NCBI RefSeq assembly: GCF_001735745.1
Contig: NZ_CP017260.1
Span: 1,830,001 to 1,862,000 of the forward strand
DNA: 32,000 nucleotides
DNA from: Formosa sp. Hel1_33_131
GTDB lineage: Bacteria; Bacteroidota; Bacteroidia; Flavobacteriales; Flavobacteriaceae
Direction of reading: 5' to 3'
Shown here: positions 4,204 through 31,992 of the stretch, piece by piece
How positions within the stretch are numbered: position 1 is the stretch's first letter
Layout: every line of letters starts with the position of its first letter
The notes under the pieces: model-generated
Seen by the model: only the letters and a program-made list of their open reading frames with translations
Databases searched by the model: none
What the model was told of the DNA's origin: nothing
Made by a program: the position numbers and the translations under genes

Positions 4204-5901
4204 TTAGCCTAAAAACTCAACAACTAGCACATCATCAGTCTTATAGACTTTTGCGAGTTCTTTTGATGTCAGTCCTTTGATGCCTTTATCCCAACCTTTA
4301 TTACTCAGTCCAGACTGTGTTTTTAAGTCTGCTAATTGAATACCAGAATTGGATTTTAAGACCTCAAAAACCGCTTTTTCGTTATCACTTAAAACCAATG
4401 CTTGTTTCTCTGGTTTCATTTGTGGAAAAAATAACACTTCTTGAATCGATGCATTATTGGTTAGAAACATAATCAAACGGTCCATCCCGATGCCCATCCC
4501 TGAAGTTGGCGGCATGCCGTATTCGAGCGCTCTTAAAAAGTCTTCATCAATAAACTCCGTTGCTTCATCATCTCCTTTTTGCGCCAATTTTAGTTGGTGC
4601 TCAAAACGTTCGCGTTGGTCAATAGGATCGTTTAATTCTGAGTATGCATTCGCAATTTCTTTCCCACAAACCATTAATTCAAAACGTTCTGTAAGCTCAG
4701 GGTTTTCGCGATGTTCTTTACACAAAGGACTCATCTCTTTTGGATAGTCTGTGATGTACGTCGGTTGTATGTAATTCCCTTCACATTTTTCTCCAAAAAT
4801 CTCATCAATCAATTTGCCTTTCCCCATGGTGTTGTCCACTTCAACGCCTAAATCTTTAGCCGCTGCGCGAATCTCATCTTCTGTTTTTCCAGCGATATCA
4901 AAACCAGTAAATTCCTTTATAGAATCCGCCATGGTGATTCTAGCATAAGGCGCTTTAAAATCGATTTCATGCTCGCCAAAAGTCGTTTTTGTGGTGCCAT
5001 TCACGGCGATGGAACAATGTTCTAGCAATTGCTCACAAAATTCCATCATCCAATTGTAATCTTTGTAAGCCACATAAATTTCCATCGCTGTAAACTCTGG
5101 ATTGTGAGTACGGTCCATCCCTTCATTTCTGAAGTTTTTAGAAAACTCATAGACCCCATCAAATCCACCGACAATCAATCGTTTTAAATACAATTCATTG
5201 GCAATTCGCATGTACAATGGAATGTCCAAACTGTTGTGATGTGTCATAAACGGACGTGCCGCAGCACCTCCAGCAATCGGTTGTAAAATGGGCGTTTCTA
5301 CCTCAAAATAACCAGCCTCGTTAAAGAAACTACGCATGGCATTGAAAAGTTTAGTTCGTTTTACAAAAACTTCTTTGACATGAGGGTTGACCACCAAATC
5401 GGCATACCGCTGACGGTAGCGCATTTCGGGATCATTAAACTCATCGTATGTATTGCCTTCCGCATCTGTTTTTGGAAGCGGTAAGGGTTTCAATGCTTTG
5501 GATAACAGTTTGAAGTGTTTTACCAACACTGTTTTTTCGCCTACTTGTGTGGTAAAAAGTTCACCTTCAATCCCAATAAAATCACCCAAATCGAGCAATT
5601 TTTTAAAGACATCGTTATAGAGACTTTTATCTTCATCAGGACAAACTTCATCTCTGTTGATGTAAATCTGGATACGGCCTTCACTGTCTTGAAGTTCCGC
5701 AAATGCCGCTTTTCCTTGTATCTTTTTTCGCATCAAACGTCCGGCCAAAACCACTTTAGTACCTTCTGAAAAATCAGATTTGACCTTAGCACTGCTGTGG
5801 GTTACGGGGAATAAATCAGCGGGATAAGGATTGATTCCTAACGCACGTAATTTTGATAGTTTTTCTCGACGGACAATTTCTTGTTCTGAAAGCTGCGACA
5901 T
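4204..5901 (-). CDS. lysS: Lysine--tRNA ligase (class II)
   Basis: Full-length similarity to bacterial LysS: N-terminal OB/anticodon-binding part, then a class II core with FRNEG, ELNDP and GMGIGMDRL motifs. Start placed at ATG 5901 (MSQLSEQEIVRREKL). The ORF-track start at 5928 is a TTG. Confidence 0.95.
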   Translation of the reverse strand: MSQLSEQEIVRREKLSKLRALGINPYPADLFPVTHSSAKVKSDFSEGTKVVLAGRLMRKKIQGKAAFAELQDSEGRIQIYINRDEVCPDEDKSLYNDVFKKLLDLGDFIGIEGELFTTQVGEKTVLVKHFKLLSKALKPLPLPKTDAEGNTYDEFNDPEMRYRQRYADLVVNPHVKEVFVKRTKLFNAMRSFFNEAGYFEVETPILQPIAGGAAARPFMTHHNSLDIPLYMRIANELYLKRLIVGGFDGVYEFSKNFRNEGMDRTHNPEFTAMEIYVAYKDYNWMMEFCEQLLEHCSIAVNGTTKTTFGEHEIDFKAPYARITMADSIKEFTGFDIAGKTEDEIRAAAKDLGVEVDNTMGKGKLIDEIFGEKCEGNYIQPTYITDYPKEMSPLCKEHRENPELTERFELMVCGKEIANAYSELNDPIDQRERFEHQLKLAQKGDDEATEFIDEDFLRALEYGMPPTSGMGIGMDRLIMFLTNNASIQEVLFFPQMKPEKQALVLSDNEKAVFEVLKSNSGIQLADLKTQSGLSNKGWDKGIKGLTSKELAKVYKTDDVLVVEFLG

Positions 5902-6045
5902 AATACTCTGATAAAATTTAAGACACAAAGATAACGACTATTGCTTAGGATTTCAATTAAAGCGGTATAAATCCTCCATTGCTTTTGTAACGTTCTATTA
6001 AAAGATACGTCTTATAGGTATAACTTAATTTAACCCTCTTTTTTT

Positions 6046-6922: not shown

Positions 6923-9243
6923 TACAGCTGATACATTATTAAGCTGTTAGAATCTCCTTTGGTTACAAACTCAAGGGGTCTGTCTGCATCTGCATTTGCT
7001 AAATCAATAGCACTCGTTCCAAACACAGGAACGCTTGCAAGCGGTTTGGCCTGACTGTCAAACAACCAAATTTTTTGAGCTTGTATATCTGTAATCGAAA
7101 TATAAATTTTATCCCTTAAATAAAACAAACTAGGAGGGGAGTAGCTTCCGTATTCCAAATCTACAGTATAGGATTTTATAGTCAATGTATTCTCGCTTCG
7201 AGTCACCAATGTTTTCGAAGAACTTGTCATGTCGTGCTTTGAGTCAAGCCCCAATGATAGACGGCTAACGGTTCCTTTGGAGTTCACCTGAATTAAATTA
7301 CCCTTCGTATTAGTGGTGGTAAACAGAGAATTGTACAAGTAAATAGCTTCTCCGGAAAAATCAATCGACTCTTTTACCTTCACGCGAATCGCTCCACGTC
7401 GATCCAATAGTTTGAGTTGATTCCCCGAGCTGAATACAATATAGTCTTTCCCCCGAATTCGAAAATGTTTGGGTTGGCTGCCGATGGACTGTGCAGCTTT
7501 ATATTTAAATCCTTTCACAGCTTTCCCTTTAGAATCATACATCAAAAGATTTTTGTTTTGTGTGATCAAAAAACGATAGTTTCGTTGTTTGTCATAATCA
7601 AATACTGCTAATGGTTGCGTAATCTCATCCTTGAACATCAACGGAAATTGGTCAACATTTTTCCCATTCCGATCGATAATATACAGTCTGTTTAGGGTTG
7701 CAAATGCCAGTTGCAAGCGGCCGTTTCTATACAAATCCACCTGCTCCACCTTTCCTAAAATAGCCCCTTTCAGTTTCTTTTTCCAGAAAATGACCCCTTT
7801 ATTTGAAATGAGATATAAATTATGGTCAATATCCTGAACCAGAATATCTTTCTTTTTGGTTCTGTGATTGGTGACAAATACAGGATCCATCAAAATGTCG
7901 TTTGAAAGCGTCAAACTAAATGCTTCGCTAATTTGTGTTTTTGATTGTTTCGATTTTGATTTTTGGAGGATGCTATTCACATGAACGATATGATCGTCTT
8001 TGACCAATTGTAAGGCAGAAAGTTTATAGGCGCTTAAATCTTTTTCCTTAATTGTTGTATCGAAGAGTTCGTTTAAAACAGTTCCCAACGCTTTAGTGTC
8101 AAAATAAGTTTGAAAGGAGGCTTCGTCGCTCAATGCGTTTTGAATTGTTTCATAAGCATAATTGGTTTCAAGCGTATTTTTGTTCAGATAATTTGAAATC
8201 ACAAATTGCAACACCTTTTCAGAGCCTGAAAACACCAAATAATCATCGAGAATGATAAATTTAGTGGGGTTGATTGTGGTTAGTAACGGCCCAAAAGCAT
8301 CTGTGAACAAAGTAGGTTCTGTAAACTCAAACAGCGGTACCGAGCGAAAACTACTCAGCTCATTTTGGAAGCTGCTCAAGGCTTCATAGGTTGCATTTAT
8401 ATCGATAGATTTTAGAGCAATTCCAGTTCCCTCAGAAGTTTCAAAGCTGCCAATTTCTTTAGTGGTACTAAAAAATGCTTTTGCCAGAGTTGATGCTTTT
8501 GACACAAAACCTGCGGAATCAATATTTCGTGTGAGTTGCTCAAAATCGGTATAATTGAAGGAATTAATCCGTGTGCTTTCGGCAGGGATAATCGTTTGCA
8601 AACTCTGGGGTTGAGGTTCCAAAGTTTCAAAAAGAGTAAACCATTTATTTTGAGATTTTTGATCTAAGATCGTACCATTCATCGCAATACTTTCAGGAGT
8701 AATGTTAAATCCAAAATACACAGATTGAGAATTTAATAACGGAATTGATTTTAGTTCGGGAAACGTTTTACAATACACCGAAAATGTATTTGACGTTTGT
8801 TGTAGTTTGGATAATTTGGAATACTCAGAAGTCGATTGCATTTTCACAGATTCAAGAATCACAGCAGAAGTTGAAGCCACCAAAATACTGTCTAAGGTGA
8901 TGTAAGGAATTAAAAGAGTATCAGTTGAATTCAAATTTCTTTGATGCGTAATAAAGGTAAACACTTGTGACTTGGCCTCTTTATTTACACATACCAAAAG
9001 TGGACTCAAACTTTTGAGGCTGTCCAATGGGATGAGTGCTTTTTTCAAGAGTTTAAAAACGCCAGTTTTAGAAATCAAAGCATTGTTGTTAATGGCGCTT
9101 TGAAAACCTTCAAGAGAATTTATAGAGAGCACAACAGAAGCATTTTTTGGAACCAAGTCCTCGATGGAACGCGTTGATTTCTGAGTGTAATTACAACTAA
9201 AAATCGTTAAAATAATCACTAAAAAATATAAAAACTTATGCAT
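6919..9243 (-). CDS. Large secreted/lipoprotein-like protein, family not recognised
   Basis: 774-aa ORF with an ATG start and a signal peptide bearing a lipobox-like FSC. The C-terminal third is rich in short beta-strand-like repeats, possibly a beta-propeller. No named family recognised. Confidence 0.7.
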   Translation of the reverse strand: MHKFLYFLVIILTIFSCNYTQKSTRSIEDLVPKNASVVLSINSLEGFQSAINNNALISKTGVFKLLKKALIPLDSLKSLSPLLVCVNKEAKSQVFTFITHQRNLNSTDTLLIPYITLDSILVASTSAVILESVKMQSTSEYSKLSKLQQTSNTFSVYCKTFPELKSIPLLNSQSVYFGFNITPESIAMNGTILDQKSQNKWFTLFETLEPQPQSLQTIIPAESTRINSFNYTDFEQLTRNIDSAGFVSKASTLAKAFFSTTKEIGSFETSEGTGIALKSIDINATYEALSSFQNELSSFRSVPLFEFTEPTLFTDAFGPLLTTINPTKFIILDDYLVFSGSEKVLQFVISNYLNKNTLETNYAYETIQNALSDEASFQTYFDTKALGTVLNELFDTTIKEKDLSAYKLSALQLVKDDHIVHVNSILQKSKSKQSKTQISEAFSLTLSNDILMDPVFVTNHRTKKKDILVQDIDHNLYLISNKGVIFWKKKLKGAILGKVEQVDLYRNGRLQLAFATLNRLYIIDRNGKNVDQFPLMFKDEITQPLAVFDYDKQRNYRFLITQNKNLLMYDSKGKAVKGFKYKAAQSIGSQPKHFRIRGKDYIVFSSGNQLKLLDRRGAIRVKVKESIDFSGEAIYLYNSLFTTTNTKGNLIQVNSKGTVSRLSLGLDSKHDMTSSSKTLVTRSENTLTIKSYTVDLEYGSYSPPSLFYLRDKIYISITDIQAQKIWLFDSQAKPLASVPVFGTSAIDLANADADRPLEFVTKGDSNSLIMYQLY

Positions 9244-14005: not shown

Positions 14006-14079
14006 AGTCTCATAGCTCAGCTGGTTAGAGCGCTACACTGATAATGTAGAGGTCGGCAGTTCGAGTCTGCCTGAGACTA
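14006..14079 (+). tRNA. tRNA-Ile (anticodon GAU)
   Basis: Hand-folded cloverleaf. The acceptor AGTCTCA pairs with TGAGACT. The anticodon stem-loop is CTACA-CTGATAA-TGTAG and the T arm is GGCAG-TTCGAGT-CTGCC. No encoded CCA. Confidence 0.93.
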
Positions 14080-14204
14080 CTAGTTTTCACCAAGGGCAGA
14101 GAGATTTGCCTGGCTTGCCACGACGCAGGCGTGGAGACTACTAGTTTTCACCAAGGGCAGAGAGATTTGCCTGGCTTGCCACGACGCAGGCGTGGAGACT
14201 ACTA
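14073..14204. repeat. 61-nt tandem direct repeat (2 full copies plus a 10-nt third start) beginning inside the tRNA-Ile 3' acceptor strand
   Basis: GAGACTAC starts at 14073, 14134 and 14195, giving a period of 61. The unit is GAGACTACTAGTTTTCACCAAGGGCAGAGAGATTTGCCTGGCTTGCCACGACGCAGGCGTG, and the two full copies look identical by eye. Each unit contains the hairpin CCACG-acgcagg-CGTGG. Confidence 0.9.
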
Positions 14205-14294: not shown

Positions 14295-14368
14295 GGGGGA
14301 TTAGCTCAGCTGGCTAGAGCGCCTGCCTTGCACGCAGGAGGTCATCGGTTCGACTCCGATATTCTCCA
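14295..14368 (+). tRNA. tRNA-Ala (anticodon UGC)
   Basis: Hand-folded cloverleaf. The acceptor GGGGGAT pairs with ATTCTCC and includes the G3:U70 Ala identity pair. The anticodon loop is CTTGCAC and the T arm is ATCGG-TTCGACT-CCGAT. Confidence 0.93.
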
Positions 14369-14425
14369 CAACGGTTATTGTTACTGATATTATTTATCAG
14401 TGGTGATACGCCACACGATCATTGA

Positions 14426-14542: not shown

Positions 14543-17379
<2,837 letters not shown>

Positions 17380-19966: not shown

Positions 19967-21817
19967 TTAAATACTGGCTACAAACTCCAAAAACACTTTT
20001 TTATGTAATTCTAAATCCATCGTAGGAGACAATGAAATACGTACAATATAATCTTTGTCACCTTCTTTTGTGGTGCCTTGGGTAGAGGTGGCGGGAATGG
20101 TCCAATAGCACCCTTGTAACTGTCCATAACTCACACAAAATTTACTTTCGTTTGGGATTTTGCTAATCATTAAATTAATTAATTTAAGATTTAAACCTCT
20201 CTTGTTCGTTTCTCTTTCTGCACTAGTAGTCCCTTTGGTGGGGAGGTCTAGTGAAAACACAGAAGGGGTAAAGCCTTGCGCTGCCAAATCTTCAGACACA
20301 AAATTGATTTTTGCACTTGGTAAAGTCTCTTTTATGAAGTTGACAAAGTCTCGCGTGTTTTTATAGGCGTCCTGAATGCGTTGATTCATGGACGGCAATT
20401 GGGAGGCCAAAATTTTATATTGAAGTGCTGTTGCTTCGTTATCACAAAGTTGGAGGTGCAACTCAATCTTGCCCATCAAGGCTTCGGATTTTTTATTGCC
20501 AACAACGTAGCCCGCCGTACATTTTCCACCACTCGGAAATTTGGACCCACTGGCATACGATAGGGTACGAACGGAAGAAAGCAAGTCATCCGCTCCTAAA
20601 AAGAGAACGTTTGGACAAAAAGTTTGGTCTAAAATAAACACAGGATCGATTGCAATGTCGCCTGTTTTGGTTTTACGGACGGTACTTAATGCATTTTTTA
20701 ATTGTATCAAATCAGGCACTTCCACTCTGGGGTTGGTAGGAATTTCTGCAATGATGTAAGGGATGGCGTCTTCGCTCGCAATTTTAGCTAAGATGGTTTC
20801 AATACTTTGTACCATTTCGTTGTCGCCATCTACGGGTAAATCGACCACTTCCACATTTTCAATACAGGCCGCCACGCGTCGTGCTTGGTCATTAGTACCA
20901 CCATAACAGTTGGGAGGTACAATAAATTTGATCGCTTTTTTGGGATGCTTTTCTTGAGCATGGTGAATGAGCCCCATCATAATCGCGTATTGAACGGAAA
21001 GTCCACTAGAGCCCACAAGGGGTTTTGTAGGACTGTGGGTAATGGTTGTAATGCTTTCTAAAACCTGTGCTTTGCTGGTTTTTAGAGTGCTATTTGTTTC
21101 ATCTGAAGTAGATCCCACTAGAGTCGATAATGCTGTCAAGCAATTGACGGGTGTCATGGCGATGGTTTCTCTTCGTCGTACATGCTGAATGTCGGATATG
21201 TAGCCTTTATTTTGGTTTCCATTTACGAGTAACACACTTCCAAGCGCTGCACTGGTTTGGAGGTAAAAATCGATGTTTGGAGAATGCTCCACCTTCCAAA
21301 GTTCTTTTTGTTGTGAGATAAAAACAGTGCTGCCTTCAAATTCAGATACGACTGTTGCATTTTCAACTTGTTTTAATTCAAATTTATAGCCATAGACACG
21401 TTTTAAGACTTCGGCATCAAAAGTGGCTGGCAACTCCCCTGTATAAACAATTTGGGTGTTTTTATGGGCTAATAAATTAGTTCTTAAAATTGCCAAAACA
21501 GGAACGGTCTGTGATGAAAAACTGATAACGTTTTCTGGGTTGAGTTGATTTAAATTGGCAATGGTCCATTCCAATACACAGGACAAAGGATGTCCTAGTC
21601 GGATGTAGTCGTAAGCGGTGGGCAAGGATTGGAGTGCCGATGGATCAGAATTATGAGTTTTATACAAGGTTTCAAACTGTTCTAAAAACTGAGTTTTGGC
21701 ACCTTTTTCATCGTAAATATCCAGTCGATGGGTGGTTAGATTCAACCAATCGATTGGTAAATTTTCTAAGACTTCTTTTAGATAGTTTAGCATTTTATTC
21801 CCTTCCATAATTTTCAT
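19967..21817 (-). CDS. Cys/Met-metabolism-type PLP-dependent enzyme (cystathionine gamma-synthase/lyase superfamily) with a long N-terminal extension
   Basis: Three features fit the fold-type I Cys/Met PLP family: IAEIPTNPRVEVPDL (compare ETPTNP), a candidate PLP lysine in ASGSKFPSGG, and GSSGLSVQYAIMMGL (compare SSGMAA). The start is uncertain: the ORF-track start at 21835 is a TTG, and in-frame ATGs occur at 21817, 21808 and 21793. Confidence 0.7.
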   Translation of the reverse strand: MKIMEGNKMLNYLKEVLENLPIDWLNLTTHRLDIYDEKGAKTQFLEQFETLYKTHNSDPSALQSLPTAYDYIRLGHPLSCVLEWTIANLNQLNPENVISFSSQTVPVLAILRTNLLAHKNTQIVYTGELPATFDAEVLKRVYGYKFELKQVENATVVSEFEGSTVFISQQKELWKVEHSPNIDFYLQTSAALGSVLLVNGNQNKGYISDIQHVRRRETIAMTPVNCLTALSTLVGSTSDETNSTLKTSKAQVLESITTITHSPTKPLVGSSGLSVQYAIMMGLIHHAQEKHPKKAIKFIVPPNCYGGTNDQARRVAACIENVEVVDLPVDGDNEMVQSIETILAKIASEDAIPYIIAEIPTNPRVEVPDLIQLKNALSTVRKTKTGDIAIDPVFILDQTFCPNVLFLGADDLLSSVRTLSYASGSKFPSGGKCTAGYVVGNKKSEALMGKIELHLQLCDNEATALQYKILASQLPSMNQRIQDAYKNTRDFVNFIKETLPSAKINFVSEDLAAQGFTPSVFSLDLPTKGTTSAERETNKRGLNLKLINLMISKIPNESKFCVSYGQLQGCYWTIPATSTQGTTKEGDKDYIVRISLSPTMDLELHKKVFLEFVASI

Positions 21818-21910
21818 CTTCAAATAGAGTAGCAAGATACATCAATCCGATTTATTTTTGAAAGGGTTCTCATGAAATCTCTAAACGATATCTAGCTGTT
21901 TCTGTAATAC

Positions 21911-21941
21911 AAAAAACCCCAAAGCTGTTGTAGCAATGGGG
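21911..21941 (-). terminator. Rho-independent terminator downstream of the 344-aa / 320-aa gene pair
   Basis: Minus strand: AAGCCCCA-ttgctacaacagct-TTGGGG followed by TTTTTTG. Confidence 0.65.
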
Positions 21942-21946
21942 CTTGG

Positions 21947-21993
21947 TTTTGTTTTTAAATCAGAAAGAACCCTATTCTTTCGGGATGTGTTTT
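21947..21993. repeat. Direct repeat DR-A (47 nt), a copy of the 3' end of the 344-aa gene
   Basis: TTTTGTTTTTAAATCAGAAAGAACCCTATTCTTTCGGGATGTGTTTT matches 23031-23077 with 3 substitutions and 2 single-nt indels in my hand alignment. The minus strand reads AAA CAC ATC CCG AAA GAA TAG = KHIPKE*. It contains the hairpin GAAAGAA-ccta-TTCTTTC-like stem. Confidence 0.8.
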
Positions 21994-22017
21994 AGAGTGT
22001 TTTTTATTTTGGCATCT

Positions 22018-22980
22018 TTAATACTCTATTCGTTTAATCATATCTTCTATTTTATTTGATTCTATATTCTTTGTCAAGCCCAATTCTCTAACTTCTTTTG
22101 TCCATTTTTTTTCGTAATCTCTTCTCGCTTTGGCATTAGTAATTGGGCGATAGTAGGGTCTTGTGTCAAATGCTGATATCAAAAGTCTATTGACTTCCTC
22201 AACATTCATTTTCGGCTTTATTGGATGACTCTGCCTTTTTTCAAGACTTAATAATATGTTTTTTTGAATTTTAGGGTCTTTAGTTTCTTCTTCTTCCCTA
22301 ACGGAGTTTAGTATTAAGAATTTTACTGGACTGGACTCGAGTTGAAATGCCATCAGTCTACAATGTCCATCAAGCACTACATATCCATCAATACAACTTA
22401 AATACCAGATAAGTACAGGGGGGCAGGAGTTTTCACGTAAGAGTTTACGGAACCATTTTACTCTTCCATTATCTGTCCTTGGTTTTTCTTTTAAAGCGAT
22501 AAGACTTCCACCTCTTCCAAAATCCCATTCCACCCATCTTGGGTTTTCTCTATCAAACACAGTATCACTGTTATTAATAAATTCTGAAGCGTTTTCTGTT
22601 TTGTTCTCTAACGAAGATCCTATTGTTATAGTCCACAGGCCTTTTGATAAAAAGCCAGATTTTTCACTACTCAATTCTTTTGTAAAAAATCGAGCCCAAT
22701 ATTTATAATACATTGATTTTTTTGATTTCTCAACGTTTGGAGCGTTTATTGGACTCACCGGCATATCACTTAATTCCCAATCCATTTTATTATTTAGAAC
22801 CCATACTCCCCAATATTCTGAACCAAAAGTACCCCACAAAATTGCTTGCTTTTGGTTGTATAATTTGAATCGACAGTTAATACCAGACTCTAGTTGGAAT
22901 TTAGGAAAAATGTCTTCATTACCATCAACTCTCATTCCAGACCATTCATCAGAATCGTTTAATATATCTATCCAATTCAT
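22018..22980 (-). CDS. ParB/Srx-fold (ParB-like nuclease domain) protein with an unrecognised N-terminal domain
   Basis: 320-aa ORF with an ATG start. The C-terminal half carries CPPVLIWYLSCIDGYVVLDGHCRLMAFQLESSPVKFLIL, which matches the P(V/I)...DGHHR..A core of ParB/sulfiredoxin-like domains. The N-terminal ~170 aa are Trp-rich and not recognised. Confidence 0.6.
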   Translation of the reverse strand: MNWIDILNDSDEWSGMRVDGNEDIFPKFQLESGINCRFKLYNQKQAILWGTFGSEYWGVWVLNNKMDWELSDMPVSPINAPNVEKSKKSMYYKYWARFFTKELSSEKSGFLSKGLWTITIGSSLENKTENASEFINNSDTVFDRENPRWVEWDFGRGGSLIALKEKPRTDNGRVKWFRKLLRENSCPPVLIWYLSCIDGYVVLDGHCRLMAFQLESSPVKFLILNSVREEEETKDPKIQKNILLSLEKRQSHPIKPKMNVEEVNRLLISAFDTRPYYRPITNAKARRDYEKKWTKEVRELGLTKNIESNKIEDMIKRIEY

Positions 22981-23030
22981 TTTTTAATTTTATAGTTTCG
23001 TATCAAGCCAGCCTCATGTAAATAGGAGTG

Positions 23031-23077
23031 TTGTTTTTTAAATCAGAAATAATCCCTATTCCTTCGGAATGTGTTTT
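23031..23077. repeat. Direct repeat DR-B (47 nt), covering the true 3' end of the 344-aa gene plus 25 nt downstream
   Basis: TTGTTTTTTAAATCAGAAATAATCCCTATTCCTTCGGAATGTGTTTT. The minus strand reads AAA CAC ATT CCG AAG GAA TAG = KHIPKE*, the actual C-terminus of CDS 23056..24090. Confidence 0.8.
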
Positions 23078-24090
23078 GCTAAAAACCGGGAGTTAGCATC
23101 GTTTAGTCCGTTAATTAATTTACTTCGTTTGCCGTTCAATTTATTGTTTGTCGCATTGTAATTTTTTACACCTTTGTTTACTTCTTTAACTTTACTATTG
23201 AAAGCATTTACTTGTTTTTTGGTTCTTTTTCTTTGAGGTGTTTTGTCGAAGGTGTTTTTAATGCTCTCAAAATCTTCATTCAGAATGATGAAATCTGTGA
23301 TTTCAGTAATTTCATTTTCGGTCTCCTCAATATAAAACTCAAACAGTTTTTGTGTGATTTTAATAAGCGAAGCATCGTTTTTATACAGCTCAACAGGTTT
23401 TAAAATTTCCAGTCCTTCCTTTGCTAATTGATTTAACGCATTCGAATTTTGCTGAATTGCGTTTACATCGTTGGTTTGTATGGCATCCATCAAGTGGGAT
23501 TCATTGATACTCACTTTAAAAAAGATGAGATACATTTCTTTGTAATGCTTAAAAACCTCATTCGAAATCTTCATTTTTTTACTTAAATCCGATTCACTTT
23601 CAATAATTTCAATGTTGTTTTTAGCTGCAAACGCATAGTAATCTATTTCGTATTCCATTTGTGACTCTTCCATTTTTTTATCGGCTAATTCCTGTGCTAA
23701 AAAATACGCTTCCATATAATCGTAGGATTGCTCAGAAACGGCTTTCATGTCAATAATTTTAGCATATTCATTTTTCAATAAACTTCTGTTCAATTTCAAA
23801 TGATCCAATACTTTGGTTTTAAATCCGTTTCCTCCAAACCCTTTTGCCTTGCTAATTTTTAAAATGGCTTTGTCAACAGTTTTTATAAGGGCACTTCTCC
23901 GTCTGTCAATCGTTCGATCACTTTTGCTGTGTGCCATGGCTTTGGTGTAACTCCACATGCTTTTTGTGATTTTTAACTGGTTGTCACTCACAAAATTTAG
24001 ATACTCTAAAGCCGTTTTATGGGATTGCGCATGGAGTGCTGTCATTTGGATGAGTAGGAATACTGAGAGTGCAATTTTTAAATGTTTCAT
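23056..24090 (-). CDS. Secreted all-alpha protein, family not recognised
   Basis: 344-aa ORF with a signal peptide (LLIQMTALHAQ). It is Lys/Glu/Asn-rich and helical in character. It begins 4 nt after the S41 peptidase stop, so the two are probably co-transcribed. Confidence 0.65.
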   Translation of the reverse strand: MKHLKIALSVFLLIQMTALHAQSHKTALEYLNFVSDNQLKITKSMWSYTKAMAHSKSDRTIDRRRSALIKTVDKAILKISKAKGFGGNGFKTKVLDHLKLNRSLLKNEYAKIIDMKAVSEQSYDYMEAYFLAQELADKKMEESQMEYEIDYYAFAAKNNIEIIESESDLSKKMKISNEVFKHYKEMYLIFFKVSINESHLMDAIQTNDVNAIQQNSNALNQLAKEGLEILKPVELYKNDASLIKITQKLFEFYIEETENEITEITDFIILNEDFESIKNTFDKTPQRKRTKKQVNAFNSKVKEVNKGVKNYNATNNKLNGKRSKLINGLNDANSRFLAKHIPKE

Positions 24091-24094
24091 ATTG

Positions 24095-26143
24095 TTAGTT
24101 GTTTAAGGGGTCTGTAAGTATGTTTGTGGCTTCTTTGATGTAGAAGTCGGTAGCGATTTCGTCTAAAATAAGAGTGTTGTGAGTGCTGTCCTCTTCATTA
24201 AATTGAATAATTTGTTGGGTAGATTTGGAGTTGGTGACTGCTAAAGTATCTGTTTTTTCTAGTTTGTTAAAAGTCATTTCTAAGTCTTCCCAGCCTCTAA
24301 CAAGTTTGTCATTATGATTATAAACACCTTCTATATTTAAGCTGAAAGAAGTGTTTTTATGAAGGTTATTTTTTAAATAAAAGGCATTCATTTTTTTCAA
24401 AAACTGGAGTCCTTCAGAAGCGATTACTCTGTTTTGAGCGTTGGCTAAAATGGTGTCTTTATTTTTAAATTCTAGCGGTCGATGTTTTAAAGAAAAAGGA
24501 ATGGAATCGGTTTTTAGAGTGTGGGGACTGTACTGTTCTCCAATTTCAAAATCGTCATAAAACGAAGGGAATATAACATCTGGTACCACTCCCGTAGATT
24601 GATGACTTTTGCCAGATACTCTATAAAACTTCTCGATTGTTACTTTGGTGTAACCCAGTGCTTCGTCATTCTCACTTATGGGGAGAATAACTTGCCCCGT
24701 TGCTTTGCCAAAGGAGTTGGTGCCCACAATAATGGCTCGGTTATAATCCTGCATCGCTGCCGCAAATAACTCGGAAGCAGAGGCGCTGAAACTGTTTACA
24801 ATCACGACGATTGGTTTTGTAAAAATGCTTCCTCTGTTAAAATCTTTTACAGTTTCTGCATCCGTTGCTTTTTGTTTTAGAATTGTAATGGGGCCTCTAT
24901 CAATAAACATTCCAACCAAATCTAAGGCCTCACCAATGGATCCTCCACCGTTAAATCGCAAGTCTAAAATTAGACCTTTAATGTGTTCTTTTTTTAATTT
25001 ATAGATTTCTTTAGCGACATCATTTGCAAGTCCTTGTTTGTTGGTAGATTCAAAACTTGTATAAAAACTTGAGATTTTTACATACCCGAATTCATTATTG
25101 ATTACAAATCCACGCACTGAATTTTCTTCCACTTTAGACACTGTTTTAGTCAGCTTTATATCTAGAATTTTCCCACTGTTCTTTTTAACCTTAAAAACAA
25201 TGGTTTCGTGCTCACTTATGAATCCTGTAATATGTTCGTTTGAAACACAATTTAGATCCAGCGTTTCTTTTTTAGAGGATAAACCTAAGACAATATCATT
25301 GGCCTCCATTCTTTGGTCTAAAAACGCAGCACCTCCAGGTTGAATGTAAGCCACAATAATATCCCCTTTTTCGTTTTTGTCGGTTACAATTCCAAAGGAT
25401 AGACTGTTACTAGAGAGCGAATTTACAAAGCTCTCTTTTTCGGAATAATTAAAAAAAGACGAATTCGGGTCTTGGTATTGAGTGATGGAATTCAAAAACC
25501 GTTCCTTGGTGAGCAGATCAATATCTTGACTTAAAAGGTCTTCTAAAAGACAGATTTCTTTTGTAATAATAGCATCCTTAATTTGAGGTTCAAATTCAGA
25601 GAAATTAGCTTTCAAATACGTCAAGGTCGAGTCTTTCTCATAGATTTTATTTAGGATGTTTAAACGAATTTTTTTAGTCCAAAATTTATCTAATCTTTTG
25701 CTGTTTTTAGCGTAAGTGTATTCTTTATCACGACGGTAAGAGATGCTGTCTAAAGATTCGTAGTCTAGCTTTTCTGTTTTTAGTTCTGATAAAAATGTAA
25801 TTCTACTTTGTATTTTAGTCTTTAAAACAGTACTGTACCTATCAATAAATGAACAGTTGTTTTGATTTATAAAATCATCTAAACTGTCTTTTTCTGTATT
25901 GAAAGTTTCAATGTCCTTTTTTGTGAATATAACTTTCTCGTAGTCTAAAGACGTGATAAATAACTCAAAAACGCCTCTTGAGAAATCATCATCAATGGGT
26001 TTAGCGTTGTAATGATTTTCTTCTAAAGTGGTATTTAGAGCCGCGATTTGCTCACAAAAACGAGGTTCTTGCTGACAGGATAGAGTTTGTATTGCGAGTA
26101 CACAAATCGTAAGGGAGGTCAGTAGGGATTGGGGTTTGTTCAT
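24095..26143 (-). CDS. S41-family C-terminal processing (tail-specific) peptidase
   Basis: LILDLRFNGGGS and VNSFSASASELFAAAMQDYNRAIIVGTNSFGKATGQ (catalytic Ser/Lys region), with a PDZ-like segment upstream and a signal peptide. Confidence 0.85.
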   Translation of the reverse strand: MNKPQSLLTSLTICVLAIQTLSCQQEPRFCEQIAALNTTLEENHYNAKPIDDDFSRGVFELFITSLDYEKVIFTKKDIETFNTEKDSLDDFINQNNCSFIDRYSTVLKTKIQSRITFLSELKTEKLDYESLDSISYRRDKEYTYAKNSKRLDKFWTKKIRLNILNKIYEKDSTLTYLKANFSEFEPQIKDAIITKEICLLEDLLSQDIDLLTKERFLNSITQYQDPNSSFFNYSEKESFVNSLSSNSLSFGIVTDKNEKGDIIVAYIQPGGAAFLDQRMEANDIVLGLSSKKETLDLNCVSNEHITGFISEHETIVFKVKKNSGKILDIKLTKTVSKVEENSVRGFVINNEFGYVKISSFYTSFESTNKQGLANDVAKEIYKLKKEHIKGLILDLRFNGGGSIGEALDLVGMFIDRGPITILKQKATDAETVKDFNRGSIFTKPIVVIVNSFSASASELFAAAMQDYNRAIIVGTNSFGKATGQVILPISENDEALGYTKVTIEKFYRVSGKSHQSTGVVPDVIFPSFYDDFEIGEQYSPHTLKTDSIPFSLKHRPLEFKNKDTILANAQNRVIASEGLQFLKKMNAFYLKNNLHKNTSFSLNIEGVYNHNDKLVRGWEDLEMTFNKLEKTDTLAVTNSKSTQQIIQFNEEDSTHNTLILDEIATDFYIKEATNILTDPLNN

Positions 26144-29136: not shown

Positions 29137-30225
29137 TTAATAGCTAAATGTTTCAGTAATTTTACTACTGATAAAATTGTTTTCATTGCGTTGGTCAAAA
29201 ACCTTCGCTATGGTCAATGTATAATCTTTAAAATAATGTTTGAGTTCAGCAACTTTATACATATTTGAAGCTTTATATAACACAAAATCTCGATGAAAAC
29301 GAATTTTAATCTGCCCTTTATTTTCCTTCTGTAAACAATCACATAAATACCAATAAGTTAGGGCAAAGTAAAAATCACTACTTAGTTCTAGAGGGCTATA
29401 GTCTTCTGAACTCGGTTTGAGAAATCTATCGGTATCTTCTTCCAATAAAGCCAAAGCTTTTGTAAACTGTCTTGCTTTAATACAATACAGAATCGGTTCA
29501 TGATAAGAATCTGAATCTTTTTCCTTTTCTTTAATATATTTTTCAAACATTTTTTTTGCTAATTTGATGTTATCTGATTTCATCAAAAAAGGGAGCACGT
29601 AAGCGTAAGCTCCTATAGGTACAGAGCTACAGGTGTGTTTTTTAGTGAATAGGGGTTCACCAACTTTTAATGCTGTTTCTAAAAGTTCGGTATGACAATA
29701 AAGCTTGAACTTAGCATATATCCTACAAGCTTTACAATCAGACATATTGTTTGTGGTTTGAATCTTAGTGGCACGTTTGTAAAACCCTTTGGCTTCTTCA
29801 AGCATTCCTAACTCCAAATAGACTCTAGACTTGTATTCATAAATTACTTTTTTTGAATGGCCTTCTTTTAAATATCGCTTTTCCATGTCTTTAACTGCAT
29901 CGAAAATTTGTGTTTTAGTAATGTTTGGAAAATCTGGTAAATCCATGATAACCCATTTGTATTTCCACAATAAAGAATGGTCATCTGAATATTCTGGATG
30001 TTTGTCTAATAAAGATAATAGTTGTGGAAAGATTGAAATAGAAATCAATGTATTTCCTGACCATTGAGCTGCTTTAATTAAATCGGAACCTACTTCTAAT
30101 TGCAGTTCTAAATCTTTCATAGATTGTGTTAATGCATAGGCTTTCTGTAAAAGTTCCGTTCTACGAGTCGACTCATCTTTGTAATGAGAAGCTTCACCCA
30201 AAAGTTTATTTAAATCTGTTTTCAT
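29137..30225 (-). CDS. All-alpha, TPR-like repeat protein (partner of the Hsp90 paralog)
   Basis: 362-aa ORF with an ATG start 6 nt after the Hsp90-paralog stop (TAA-ACACCA-ATG). It has no signal peptide and is helical and repeat-like. Segments such as SRVYLELGMLEEAKGFYKRA and LAKKMFEKYI resemble TPR motifs. The fold call is tentative. Confidence 0.5.
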   Translation of the reverse strand: MKTDLNKLLGEASHYKDESTRRTELLQKAYALTQSMKDLELQLEVGSDLIKAAQWSGNTLISISIFPQLLSLLDKHPEYSDDHSLLWKYKWVIMDLPDFPNITKTQIFDAVKDMEKRYLKEGHSKKVIYEYKSRVYLELGMLEEAKGFYKRATKIQTTNNMSDCKACRIYAKFKLYCHTELLETALKVGEPLFTKKHTCSSVPIGAYAYVLPFLMKSDNIKLAKKMFEKYIKEKEKDSDSYHEPILYCIKARQFTKALALLEEDTDRFLKPSSEDYSPLELSSDFYFALTYWYLCDCLQKENKGQIKIRFHRDFVLYKASNMYKVAELKHYFKDYTLTIAKVFDQRNENNFISSKITETFSY

Positions 30226-30231
30226 TGGTGT

Positions 30232-31992
30232 TTATGATTTAAGGTCAATTAAACGAACCATACTTTCTCCAATAATGTTTAATTCTTTTTTTGTAATAGG
30301 ATGATGTCCCATCATTAGTGATTGAACATAAAGGATCTTGATAAATGTTTTTGTCAATTCAGCTTTCTTCTGGCGTGTTAATTTTTGGACCAATGAATTG
30401 TTATAATTTAACACCAATTGTGCTATTGCAACAGGTTCTATTTCTTTGCTCAAATTATCCATAATATTTTTCCACGGCGTATCTTCTTCGGTTTCCTGCA
30501 TATCTCTTAGTATTTTCATTTGGTCATTAATATGAAACAAACACGGAATATCATCGGGAGCAAATTTTTTCAATTGAAAAGTACAATTATAGGGCAGTAA
30601 GGTCTCATTGCCCAAATCGACAAAATCGAAGAATTCATTTCGTTCCTCAAGACTTAATTCTTCAAAAATTTGAATCATATCATTGGCACTTACGGAACGT
30701 ACAGGCCATTCTGGGAAACAGACACTTGCTTTTTCTAACAGTTCAATACAATAGGCATAACCGGCATTGATTAGATGTTTGTTTTGAGCAATTGCAATAG
30801 GAATGAGCTGCCTGAATTCATCAACGTTGTCAACAAAATCTATATATTTTTGTGATTCAAAAAATGTAGGAAGCGTTATGTATCCCAATGTGCTAGGAAA
30901 CTCTATAAAATTAATCATCAATCGGAAAAAATCTTCATTTTCAATGGCGAGCATCTTAATGGGATTGTGATGAATACTGATGAGTTTATTGAGTTTTTCG
31001 GGACTGTGTTTTGAAAGTTCTTTCAAATAACTTTTGAGTTGCTCTCCAAAATATTCTTTTGTTTGCATTAAGTTATCATCCTCATAAAACGATTCGCGAG
31101 AGGCTGTGGGTTTTAGAGTGTTTGTATTGATGATGCAATAGGCAAATACCGCCCAGTCAGGTAGTATGCTGGCTCCACTTTCGACTACCAACATATTTTT
31201 TAAATAAATGAGGTGGTTTTTTTTTGAGGATATCCCTGTTGAATAGGGTAAGATATAAGCAACCCCTGCGTTGCTATTATCAGGGTTATAAAGTGGCACG
31301 GCATCAAAAAAATCGATCTCAAAATGCTTAGCCCCCAATTCTAGTAATTTTTCTTTGGGGGTATTATTCGCAAAAGGATTGATCTCGGCATTTATTTTAT
31401 TAGATTTAGTCCCAACACTAAGCGTAGTTGGGAGGAATTGTCCGTAGTGGCGAACAATTTCTGTTAATGAATCTATTTCAAAAAAGGACGAAGGCTCTTT
31501 CGCTTTCAAATATACTTTTGTTCCTGTTTTTATCTTTTGCTTTATTTTTTTAAGGGTGTAAGTGCCATCATTTTTTCCGTGCCACTCTAATGCGTCTCCT
31601 CCTTTTGCGGATTGTGTGATTAGAACAATTTCATCAGTTACCATAAAGCAAGAGAGAATCCCGATGCCAAATTGCCCGATATAATCATTACGTTCAAAAT
31701 CAATTTTTTTTTGATTTCGTTTTAATGAAGACCCTATTTTTGCCAAGAATTGATGGATTTCATCTTCGGTAAGTCCCTGACCATTATCTTCTATACAAAT
31801 TTGAGGATGTTGATCGTCTTCAAAAATCTCAAAATGTATATGCCCTTGAATGTTTTCAGAGTTTTTACGCATCTGAATGGCATCTACTCCGTTTTGAATT
31901 AATTCTCGGATAAACACCTTTTCTTCACTATACAAATGATTGCCAAGGATGTCAATCATTCCTCCTAAATCTACTTGAAATGTATGTTTCAT
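30232..31992 (-). CDS. Divergent Hsp90/HtpG-family GHKL ATPase paralog
   Basis: 586-aa ORF with an ATG start. Bergerat-fold motifs are present: N box FIRELIQNGVDA, G1 box IEDNGQGLT and G2 box IGQFGIGILSCFMV. The middle-domain motif LKPTASRESF resembles HtpG LPLNVSREIL. It is collinear with HtpG but shorter and much more divergent than a housekeeping htpG. Confidence 0.75.
   Translation of the reverse strand: MKHTFQVDLGGMIDILGNHLYSEEKVFIRELIQNGVDAIQMRKNSENIQGHIHFEIFEDDQHPQICIEDNGQGLTEDEIHQFLAKIGSSLKRNQKKIDFERNDYIGQFGIGILSCFMVTDEIVLITQSAKGGDALEWHGKNDGTYTLKKIKQKIKTGTKVYLKAKEPSSFFEIDSLTEIVRHYGQFLPTTLSVGTKSNKINAEINPFANNTPKEKLLELGAKHFEIDFFDAVPLYNPDNSNAGVAYILPYSTGISSKKNHLIYLKNMLVVESGASILPDWAVFAYCIINTNTLKPTASRESFYEDDNLMQTKEYFGEQLKSYLKELSKHSPEKLNKLISIHHNPIKMLAIENEDFFRLMINFIEFPSTLGYITLPTFFESQKYIDFVDNVDEFRQLIPIAIAQNKHLINAGYAYCIELLEKASVCFPEWPVRSVSANDMIQIFEELSLEERNEFFDFVDLGNETLLPYNCTFQLKKFAPDDIPCLFHINDQMKILRDMQETEEDTPWKNIMDNLSKEIEPVAIAQLVLNYNNSLVQKLTRQKKAELTKTFIKILYVQSLMMGHHPITKKELNIIGESMVRLIDLKS

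Follow-up and report, generated by a model that had tools for sequence, protein, structure and literature searches.

Direct repeats that contain the 3′ end of a gene are left by integrases at attachment (att) sites, as seen for the staphylococcal cassette chromosome (SCC) elements at rlmH and for the islands at tRNA genes. Chromosomal hot spots that lack mobile elements but show recombination in the flanking core genes have been described by Oliveira, Touchon, Cury and Rocha (2017, PMC5635113), and incoming modules are proposed to displace gene ends by homology-facilitated illegitimate recombination in effector-immunity arrays of the V. cholerae type VI secretion system (T6SS) (PMC5361080, in which the orphan 3′ ends of Rhs and contact-dependent inhibition (CDI) genes are cited). 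Here we compare with these systems a locus of Formosa sp. Hel1_33_131 (NZ_CP017260.1, 1,830,001–1,862,000; this whole stretch of 32,000 nt is referred to as the window, and all coordinates are positions within it), where an imperfect 47–48-nt direct repeat brackets a single gene, encoding a 320-aa protein, which lies between a conserved 344-aa gene and an intrinsic terminator. We consider it slightly better than an even bet (a probability of roughly 0.55) that the interval between the stop codon and the terminator of the 344-aa gene is a strain-variable hot spot without mobile genes that gained the 320-aa gene, and that the repeat is a scar of recombination; our best reading of the locus is as an ordinary recombination hot spot and not as a new kind of mobile element.

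The locus is like the hot spots of Oliveira et al. (PMC5635113) in that the content between two conserved genes varies among close strains, no integrase or transposase is found in the interval and a clear homologous-recombination tract is seen in a flanking core gene, but it differs in being very small, with one gene per allele placed exactly between a stop codon and a terminator, and in that one allele retains a 47-nt duplicated gene end as a scar. With the displaced gene ends of T6SS and Rhs loci (PMC5361080) it would share an entry anchored on a conserved upstream gene without a recombinase, and a resident 3′ end pushed downstream to survive as a remnant, whereas here the conserved gene is not a toxin gene, the remnant keeps only 22 coding nt, and a single event by a mechanism that we infer takes the place of an array. 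SCC elements and tRNA islands offer a third comparison, as there too the repeats hold the 3′ end of the target, the gene is left intact and the empty site has one copy; in contrast, we find no recombinase in the window, the element is of 1 kb with a single non-mobility gene, the repeats are only ~87% identical, and other cargo is present at the site without repeats.

The initial annotation described direct repeats of ~47 nt flanking one gene, and this was borne out by a repeat search of the window, by blastn-short and by ten metagenome contigs. The copy upstream of the 320-aa gene (direct repeat B, DR-B) codes AAA CAC ATT CCG AAG GAA TAG and is the real K-H-I-P-K-E-stop end of the 344-aa gene, and the copy downstream (DR-A) reads AAA CAC ATC CCG AAA GAA TAG, so that both coding differences are synonymous, as originally stated. 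Over 47 nt the two copies are separated by five substitutions and by one or two indels; their identity is 73% when ungapped, a value lowered by one indel, and 90.7% over 43 columns when gapped (E = 3e-9 for 500 nt against 500 nt). The 24-nt repeat core AAAACACATYCCGAARGAATAGGG has two occurrences in the window compared with 0.00 expected from 100 shuffles. The same arrangement is reproduced in 10 independent metagenome contigs (JGI, ENA and Logan) at 99.7–100% identity and is therefore not an assembly artefact.

A hairpin and U-run follow directly after DR-A, where a terminator had been annotated, and fold at −24.9 kcal/mol (z = −3.2, with 0 of 200 shuffles as stable); a simple terminator scan did not call this hairpin, presumably because its loop exceeds the limit of the scan. 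The 100 nt leading from the 344-aa gene to the 320-aa open reading frame (ORF) are unstructured (−8.3 kcal/mol, z = +0.36), and as there is no terminator upstream of the cargo, the 320-aa gene is probably co-transcribed by read-through from the 344-aa gene, with transcripts ending at the old terminator. The insert is 32–36% GC and the 344-aa gene 31–34%, which shows no compositional contrast and does not fit the earlier description of the insert as AT-rich.

The site is strain-variable, with an insertion, an empty site and an alternative cargo found in relatives. When the 344-aa protein was used to scan JGI metagenome contigs, two loci emerged, referred to as L015 and L016, and a scan of genome contigs gave only relatives of ~60% identity. 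L016 belongs to a sister lineage and is 92% identical to the window over 28105–23035 and 87% over 21993–20819; these two matches overlap by 42 nt (L016 6014–6055), and since this overlap implies a single repeat copy, followed by the same terminator element (−28.9 kcal/mol, z = −4.5) and the gene for a pyridoxal phosphate (PLP)-dependent enzyme with no insert, L016 represents the empty site. Two ENA contigs (L027 and L028) have the same empty site, with flanks that are 94% and 86% identical. The order of gene, single repeat and terminator which the initial annotation had proposed as ancestral, and for which it had suggested looking in related genomes, exists in these three sister-lineage contigs, and because they have one repeat copy and no insert, the 320-aa gene is an accessory insertion and not a core gene shared with its two repeats by all relatives. 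Empty sites were found only in this 92–94% identical lineage, and a gapped exact-pattern search of the JGI metagenome contigs found no same-species empty allele.

The third allele is carried by L015, a conspecific contig with flanks 99.0% and 99.1% identical to the window. At the same spot it has an insert of 2465 nt encoding a 793-aa TonB-dependent receptor, which starts right after TAGGG (just past the stop codon) and ends at CAAAACC (just before the terminator), removing the spacer and leaving no duplicated repeat; homology between the L015 post-stop spacer and DR-B plus the leader of the window was not significant (p = 0.1–0.4). The alleles are thus three: empty (L016, L027 and L028), with the 320-aa gene (the window and L001–L010), and with the receptor gene (L015). 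All 16 of the 16 contigs with an identical 320-aa protein share one context, and no further contexts came from exact-protein look-ups with the two flank proteins (344 and 613 aa). More distant relatives retain the pair formed by a protease gene and the 344-aa gene with other genes after it (L013, L014 and L026, all without the 320-aa gene); in Hyunsoonleella and Jejuia this is a 248-aa ORF with an N-terminus that we take by eye to be yebC-like, and in L026 a convergent ORF whose translation presumably resembles tsf (elongation factor Ts). As various genes occupy this position in relatives, the 3′ side of the 344-aa gene is a recurrent breakpoint.

Recombination in the flanks is directly visible when L015 is compared with the window. 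Only 4 differences are found over 25071–23569, followed by 14 within 23194–23068 (127 nt at the end of the 344-aa gene) and 4 more within 40 nt containing the terminator. Over 23194–23068 the sister lineage matches the window allele, and therefore it is L015 that has the imported allele; the cluster of differences indicates that homologous recombination brought in the receptor allele together with flanking DNA of ~10% divergence. In the downstream flank the polymorphic positions form clusters in a mosaic pattern that L001 and L015 have in common. Contigs labelled k141 and k127 ending at 21775 and 21790 imply a branch in the assembly graph near 21916, and L005 (k141, 23335) and L006 (k127, 23320) imply another at ~23194; these same-species contig ends fit the L015 polymorphisms, and it would seem from this that the sampled populations contain both alleles.

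When compared with the copy at the empty site, DR-A has 3 substitutions and 0 indels and DR-B has 4 substitutions and 2 indels; states seen in DR-B only are found at its left end as well as its right, the copy at the empty site does not combine the left of DR-B with the right of DR-A, and DR-A is the closer of the two to the L016/L027 single copy. These differences hint that DR-A may be the resident gene end, kept on its terminator, and that DR-B may have arrived with the incoming DNA, which reverses the earlier suggestion that DR-A came from a donor allele; a donor with an intact 344-aa gene followed by the cargo would also be the more natural source. The repeat copies differ by 11–13%, compared with ~0.3% between conspecific flanks, and this speaks against a duplication of the target site in recent times.

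The order of events that we infer for the making of the repeat would begin with DNA coming in, probably from a relative with an intact 344-aa gene and then the cargo gene. Homologous recombination, within the 344-aa gene or at its end, would have resolved one side, and illegitimate joining the other, 22 nt before the resident stop codon, where the right junction between CTCT and AAAACAC shows no extended homology. The outcome of such homology-facilitated illegitimate recombination, or of a comparable one-sided process, would be an intact gene that ends in the incoming copy (DR-B), then the cargo, and then the displaced resident end and spacer (DR-A) on the resident terminator. Alleles of the interval could later have passed between strains when ordinary homologous recombination took place in the genes on either side.

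Several observations weigh against this scenario. A sliding divergence test found no significant donor tract in the window allele when compared with L016, and the 12 differences between the two in the last 70 nt before the insert place this stretch at the 8th percentile of 70-nt windows. No other lineage was seen to have the donor arrangement, in which the 320-aa gene comes after the 344-aa gene, and the nearest homologue of the cargo is 69% identical and located elsewhere. In addition, integrase-mediated insertion classically leaves such a footprint, a direct repeat containing the 3′ end of its target gene. Site-specific integration of this type, one of the two origins named by the initial annotation, would need a recombinase encoded elsewhere in the genome acting on a circular cassette with the 344-aa gene 3′ end as attP and on a chromosomal attB, by analogy with the recombinase-less pseudo-SCC elements at the rlmH 3′ end or with integrase-less satellites. 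It would account for repeats which include the end of the target gene and rebuild it intact, for a clean single-copy empty site, and for DR-B looking foreign and DR-A looking resident over their full length, which is compatible with a crossover at the repeat's extreme left. However, the scanned ORFs of the insert and of the 32-kb window include no recombinase, the repeat copies are only ~87% identical with a longest shared run of 15 nt, the L015 cargo is found at the same site with the spacer removed and without such a repeat, cassette ends are not shared by the homologues elsewhere, of which six of the seven lack a flanking repeat, and no member of the family was found in viral contigs. On balance, we consider att-type integration unlikely.

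The divergence of the repeats can also be read as age, with an old insertion and in-situ duplication before the split from the sister lineage, and with the empty sites produced secondarily by precise deletion between the repeats. The 11–13% divergence of the copies is similar in order to that from the sister lineage (8% overall and 13% in intergenic DNA), and the single copy that is observed is DR-A-like, as it should be if the repeats had recombined at their left end, but the need for some unknown mechanism to duplicate 47 nt on insertion and for precise loss in the sister lineage, the absence of the gene from the more distant L013, L014 and L026, which have other genes after their 344-aa gene, and the finding that DR-B has the most unique changes despite being partly under coding constraint make this distinctly unlikely. 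Mobility might instead be promoted by the 320-aa protein itself, were it a ParB/sulfiredoxin (Srx)-fold nuclease cutting empty sites and copied in by repair in the manner of a free-standing homing endonuclease gene, and the transfer of the ORF alone would then be accounted for. There are nucleases among the ParB/Srx proteins, the eight loci resemble each other in nucleotide sequence only within the ORF, the distribution is patchy (Flavobacteriia, Cytophagia and distant members in the Gammaproteobacteria) and there is no other mobility gene nearby; nonetheless, the target context differs at every occurrence, unlike in site-specific homing, a different cargo occupies the same site, no nuclease activity is known for the family, and homing makes no 47-nt duplication, and we regard this as the least likely way for the gene to have arrived, with only a slim chance of being correct. 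A related suggestion, that the family is an ORF-only selfish or conflict gene whose ParB/Srx-fold enzyme, with a novel Trp-rich N-terminal domain, either inserts itself by terminators or serves on its own in defence or immunity, would account for a patchy occurrence in the Bacteroidota and Gammaproteobacteria without a linked mobility gene, and is in our opinion very unlikely. The AT-rich, low-complexity sequence around the A-runs might lead one to see the repeat as a chance match or assembly artefact, but this is refuted by the E-value of the match, the two copies of the core against none expected and the agreement of ten independent assemblies.

The hot-spot reading that we prefer leaves current understanding unchanged, and the locus can be seen as tidy but ordinary flexible-genome dynamics. 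It does provide a clean and small natural case of harmless gene addition with three states of the site visible in environmental populations, where a cargo inserted after a stop codon and before a terminator probably borrows both transcription and termination, and on this reading it adds marine Flavobacteriia to the evidence that genes are often gained via recombination in flanking core genes rather than by dedicated mobile elements.

Searches for mobility machinery were negative. No integrase or transposase family was matched among the scanned ORFs of at least 120 aa in the 32-kb window (an ORF at 16789–17247 in the ribosomal RNA (rRNA) region was left out), and the insert contains one ORF and no recombinase family. 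The repeat search found no inverted repeat at the ends of the insert and Rfam no RNA family, its single match being far under the gathering score. The traits of an integron cassette are also missing, as there is no inverted repeat at the insert ends, the upstream region is unstructured and the window has no integrase. A scan of IMG/VR viral contigs for the 320-aa family produced no member.

Homologues of the 320-aa gene at seven other loci have neighbours that are all different. DNA similarity among the loci begins 0–9 nt before the start codon and never runs past the stop codon, and no conserved cassette ends are shared. The possibility raised by the initial annotation that the insert travels with the same repeat elsewhere was not realised, as the contigs with the identical protein have only the context described above, and the nearest other homologue (69% identical) shares only the ORF and lacks the repeat of this locus, as do the others. 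A flanking repeat is absent at six of the seven other loci, and the exception, in Flavivirga, is a different phenomenon. In this locus (L012, Flavivirga jejuensis JAUOEL010000001.1) a ~300-nt repeat is found at 4719–5018, 5700–6001 and 7013–7314, with one copy before each of three unrelated genes (196, 320 and 346 aa) which form an array that includes the homologue; the copies are 86–96% identical and contain a perfect 24–26-nt palindrome ATATAGTTACCATGGTAACTATAT, and upstream of the array there is a small ORF of 104 aa, while ParDE and a group II intron reverse transcriptase are found downstream. The organisation resembles an array of cassettes that have a leader or operator in common.

Close homologues of the 320-aa protein number 29, with 52–69% identity for full-length members, and occur in the Flavobacteriia (Flavivirga, Olleya and Kordia) and Cytophagia (Marivirga and Fulvivirga). 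An AlphaFold2 model made from 27 close homologues was unusable (predicted local distance difference test score, pLDDT, of 54), and because this alignment was shallow a deeper one was built by a profile search of 1.84 billion representative proteins, which defined a family of 509 clusters at 50% identity (E <= 1e-3); the best 150 of the 509 clusters are mostly full-length proteins of 300–350 aa, and named members of the family include Pseudoalteromonas and Brenneria proteins. With 120 diverse members the model reached a pLDDT of 95.5 and a predicted template modelling (pTM) score of 0.91. The top 23 Foldseek matches of this model in the PDB are all ParB/Srx-fold proteins (E 0.015–0.2), among them Noc, ParB, PadC, SerK, 1vk1, sulfiredoxin (probability 0.98) and KorB, and most of the top matches amongst the viral structures of BFVD are named ParB/Sulfiredoxin or ParB-like (best E 9e-4); the E-values are modest because only about one-third of the protein aligns.

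The predicted ParB/Srx core spans approximately residues 170–230, with DGHxR at 204–208, which corresponds to the Gly-x-x-Arg type of motif (DGHHR, GERR or GCHR) that this superfamily has behind its central strand. D204, G205 and R208 are invariant in the 120 diverse members, H206, R173, K175, R178 and K179 are at least 90% conserved, and so are five tryptophans (W49, W95, W116, W152 and W293). The family profile aligns P-x-L...D-x-Y-x-I-x-D-G-H-x-R to 1vk1 and archaeal SerK with marginal E-values of 0.08–0.25. Sequence profiles were less informative: Pfam had no match at E <= 10 for the window protein and none for its 26 close relatives, and amongst the 120 diverse members gave three weak Parb-CE matches (best E 0.02) and one to ParBc_2 (0.008); NCBIfam, PADLOC and PHROGs had nothing for the window protein, though one distant family member has a single sub-threshold SerK match in NCBIfam (E 0.037); and a PDB sequence search with the single protein or a shallow profile found nothing. 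The ParB/Srx domain proposed from the sequence is therefore supported by the modelled fold and by the invariant motif but was not picked up by the Pfam, NCBIfam, PADLOC or PHROGs profiles for this protein, and the core is probably nucleotide-binding. The N-terminal half (~165 Trp-rich residues) has no known structural match and so remains unrecognised, as it was at the outset.

In comparison with known ParB/Srx proteins (the ParB, Noc and KorB CTPases, PadC, sulfiredoxin, the archaeal free serine kinase SerK and P. furiosus 1vk1), the 320-aa protein is alike in the fold predicted for residues ~170–230 and in the D-G-H-x-R motif after a hydrophobic strand (compare the PxL...DxYxIxDGHHR of 1vk1 and SerK). 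It differs from them in the ~165-residue Trp-rich N-terminus, in giving no Pfam ParBc match, in having neither the helix-turn-helix nor the dimerisation domain of partition ParB, and in that the gene stands alone without a parA, dnd or ibrA partner. Neighbours of the homologues in single loci include an RHS/Imm7 array, an Mrr restriction enzyme, ParDE toxin-antitoxin genes and UmuCD-like genes, and this company of toxin-immunity arrays, a restriction enzyme and toxin-antitoxin genes hints at a role in conflict or defence. Placement in a toxin array is seen at one of eight loci (L011) and no toxin was seen at the others. In L011 (3379–6963 of a 364-kb contig, ENA ERZ928339) the homologue closes a tight same-strand array with an RHS-repeat ORF, an Imm7-like gene, a Cys-rich CPCC gene and a 147-aa ORF 7 nt upstream of the homologue, which is the layout of a polymorphic-toxin immunity array. 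As a sizeable and uncharacterised family with a confidently predicted ParB/Srx core joined to an unmatched domain, these proteins may merit inclusion in screens for defence and interbacterial conflict.

The features of the locus are listed in Table 1. The protease gene, the 344-aa gene, the 320-aa ORF and the PLP-enzyme gene are all carried by the minus strand, and the remainder of the window is core chromosome, including a class II aminoacyl-tRNA synthetase, a lipoyl ligase, RNase HII and a probable rRNA operon. The 344-aa protein matches NCBIfam NF047958 (E = 9.5e-15) and has 420 homologues across the Flavobacteriaceae, nearly all of 341–347 aa.

Table 1. Features of the variable interval and its flanks (window coordinates).
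Feature	Position	Strand	Basis
S41 tail-specific protease	24095–26143	−	
344-aa conserved gene (LIC11966-family surface protein with signal-peptide-like N-terminus); upstream hot-spot flank	23056–24090	−	ORF and NCBIfam
DR-B: end of the 344-aa gene (last six codons with the stop) and ~25 nt of spacer	23030–23077	−	
Leader from DR-B to the start codon: ~50 nt, A-rich, unstructured, without terminator	22981–23029	−	
320-aa cargo gene: Trp-rich, beta-rich N-terminus, predicted ParB/Srx-fold core, helical C-terminal region	22018–22980	−	
Tail from the cargo stop codon to DR-A: 24 nt, includes GATGCCAA	21994–22017	−	
DR-A: non-coding copy of the gene end and spacer, contiguous with the terminator as at the empty site	21946–21993	−	
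Intrinsic terminator hairpin (A/U-extended stem; core stem 21915–21943, U-run 21911–21916)	21909–21952	−	Folding
PLP-dependent enzyme (Cys/Met-metabolism family, 613/622 aa); downstream hot-spot flank	19967–21835	−	

Two minor features of the repeat copies were noted. The octamers GATGCCAA (22009–22016) and GATGCTAA (23093–23100) are each exactly 15 nt upstream of the respective repeat copy, and the 15 nt in between have no mutual similarity; this register could be due to chance, to microhomology, or to a trace of a longer displaced gene end. DR-A also contains a small palindrome, GAAAGAAT-AGG-GTTCTTTC, which was inspected as a XerCD/dif-like site and rejected because the arms are too short, the spacer is of 3 nt, and the palindrome is not kept in DR-B or L016.

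Elsewhere in the window, the PLP enzyme is unusually long (613–622 aa), with the Cys/Met-metabolism PLP domain spanning only residues ~255–505; it scores far under every NCBIfam equivalog cut-off, and no family was assigned to its N-terminal 250 residues. The plus strand between ~12000 and ~16800 is without long ORFs and includes tRNA-Ile(GAT) at 14006–14080 and tRNA-Ala(TGC) at 14295–14369, and is most likely an rRNA operon with the usual spacer tRNAs. At 29137–31992 the minus strand encodes a 586-aa HATPase_c_3 protein followed by a 362-aa protein without a family, and as the match between L016 and the window ends at ~28105, this side may be variable too. A second strain-variable junction is located at ~19727, 240 nt downstream of the PLP gene, where L001 and L015 cease to match the window; past this point, these two carry an Abi_2 (abortive-infection-like) gene, and the window carries an RDD-family gene, a weak sub-threshold cytochrome-b561-like match and a DUF2750 gene.

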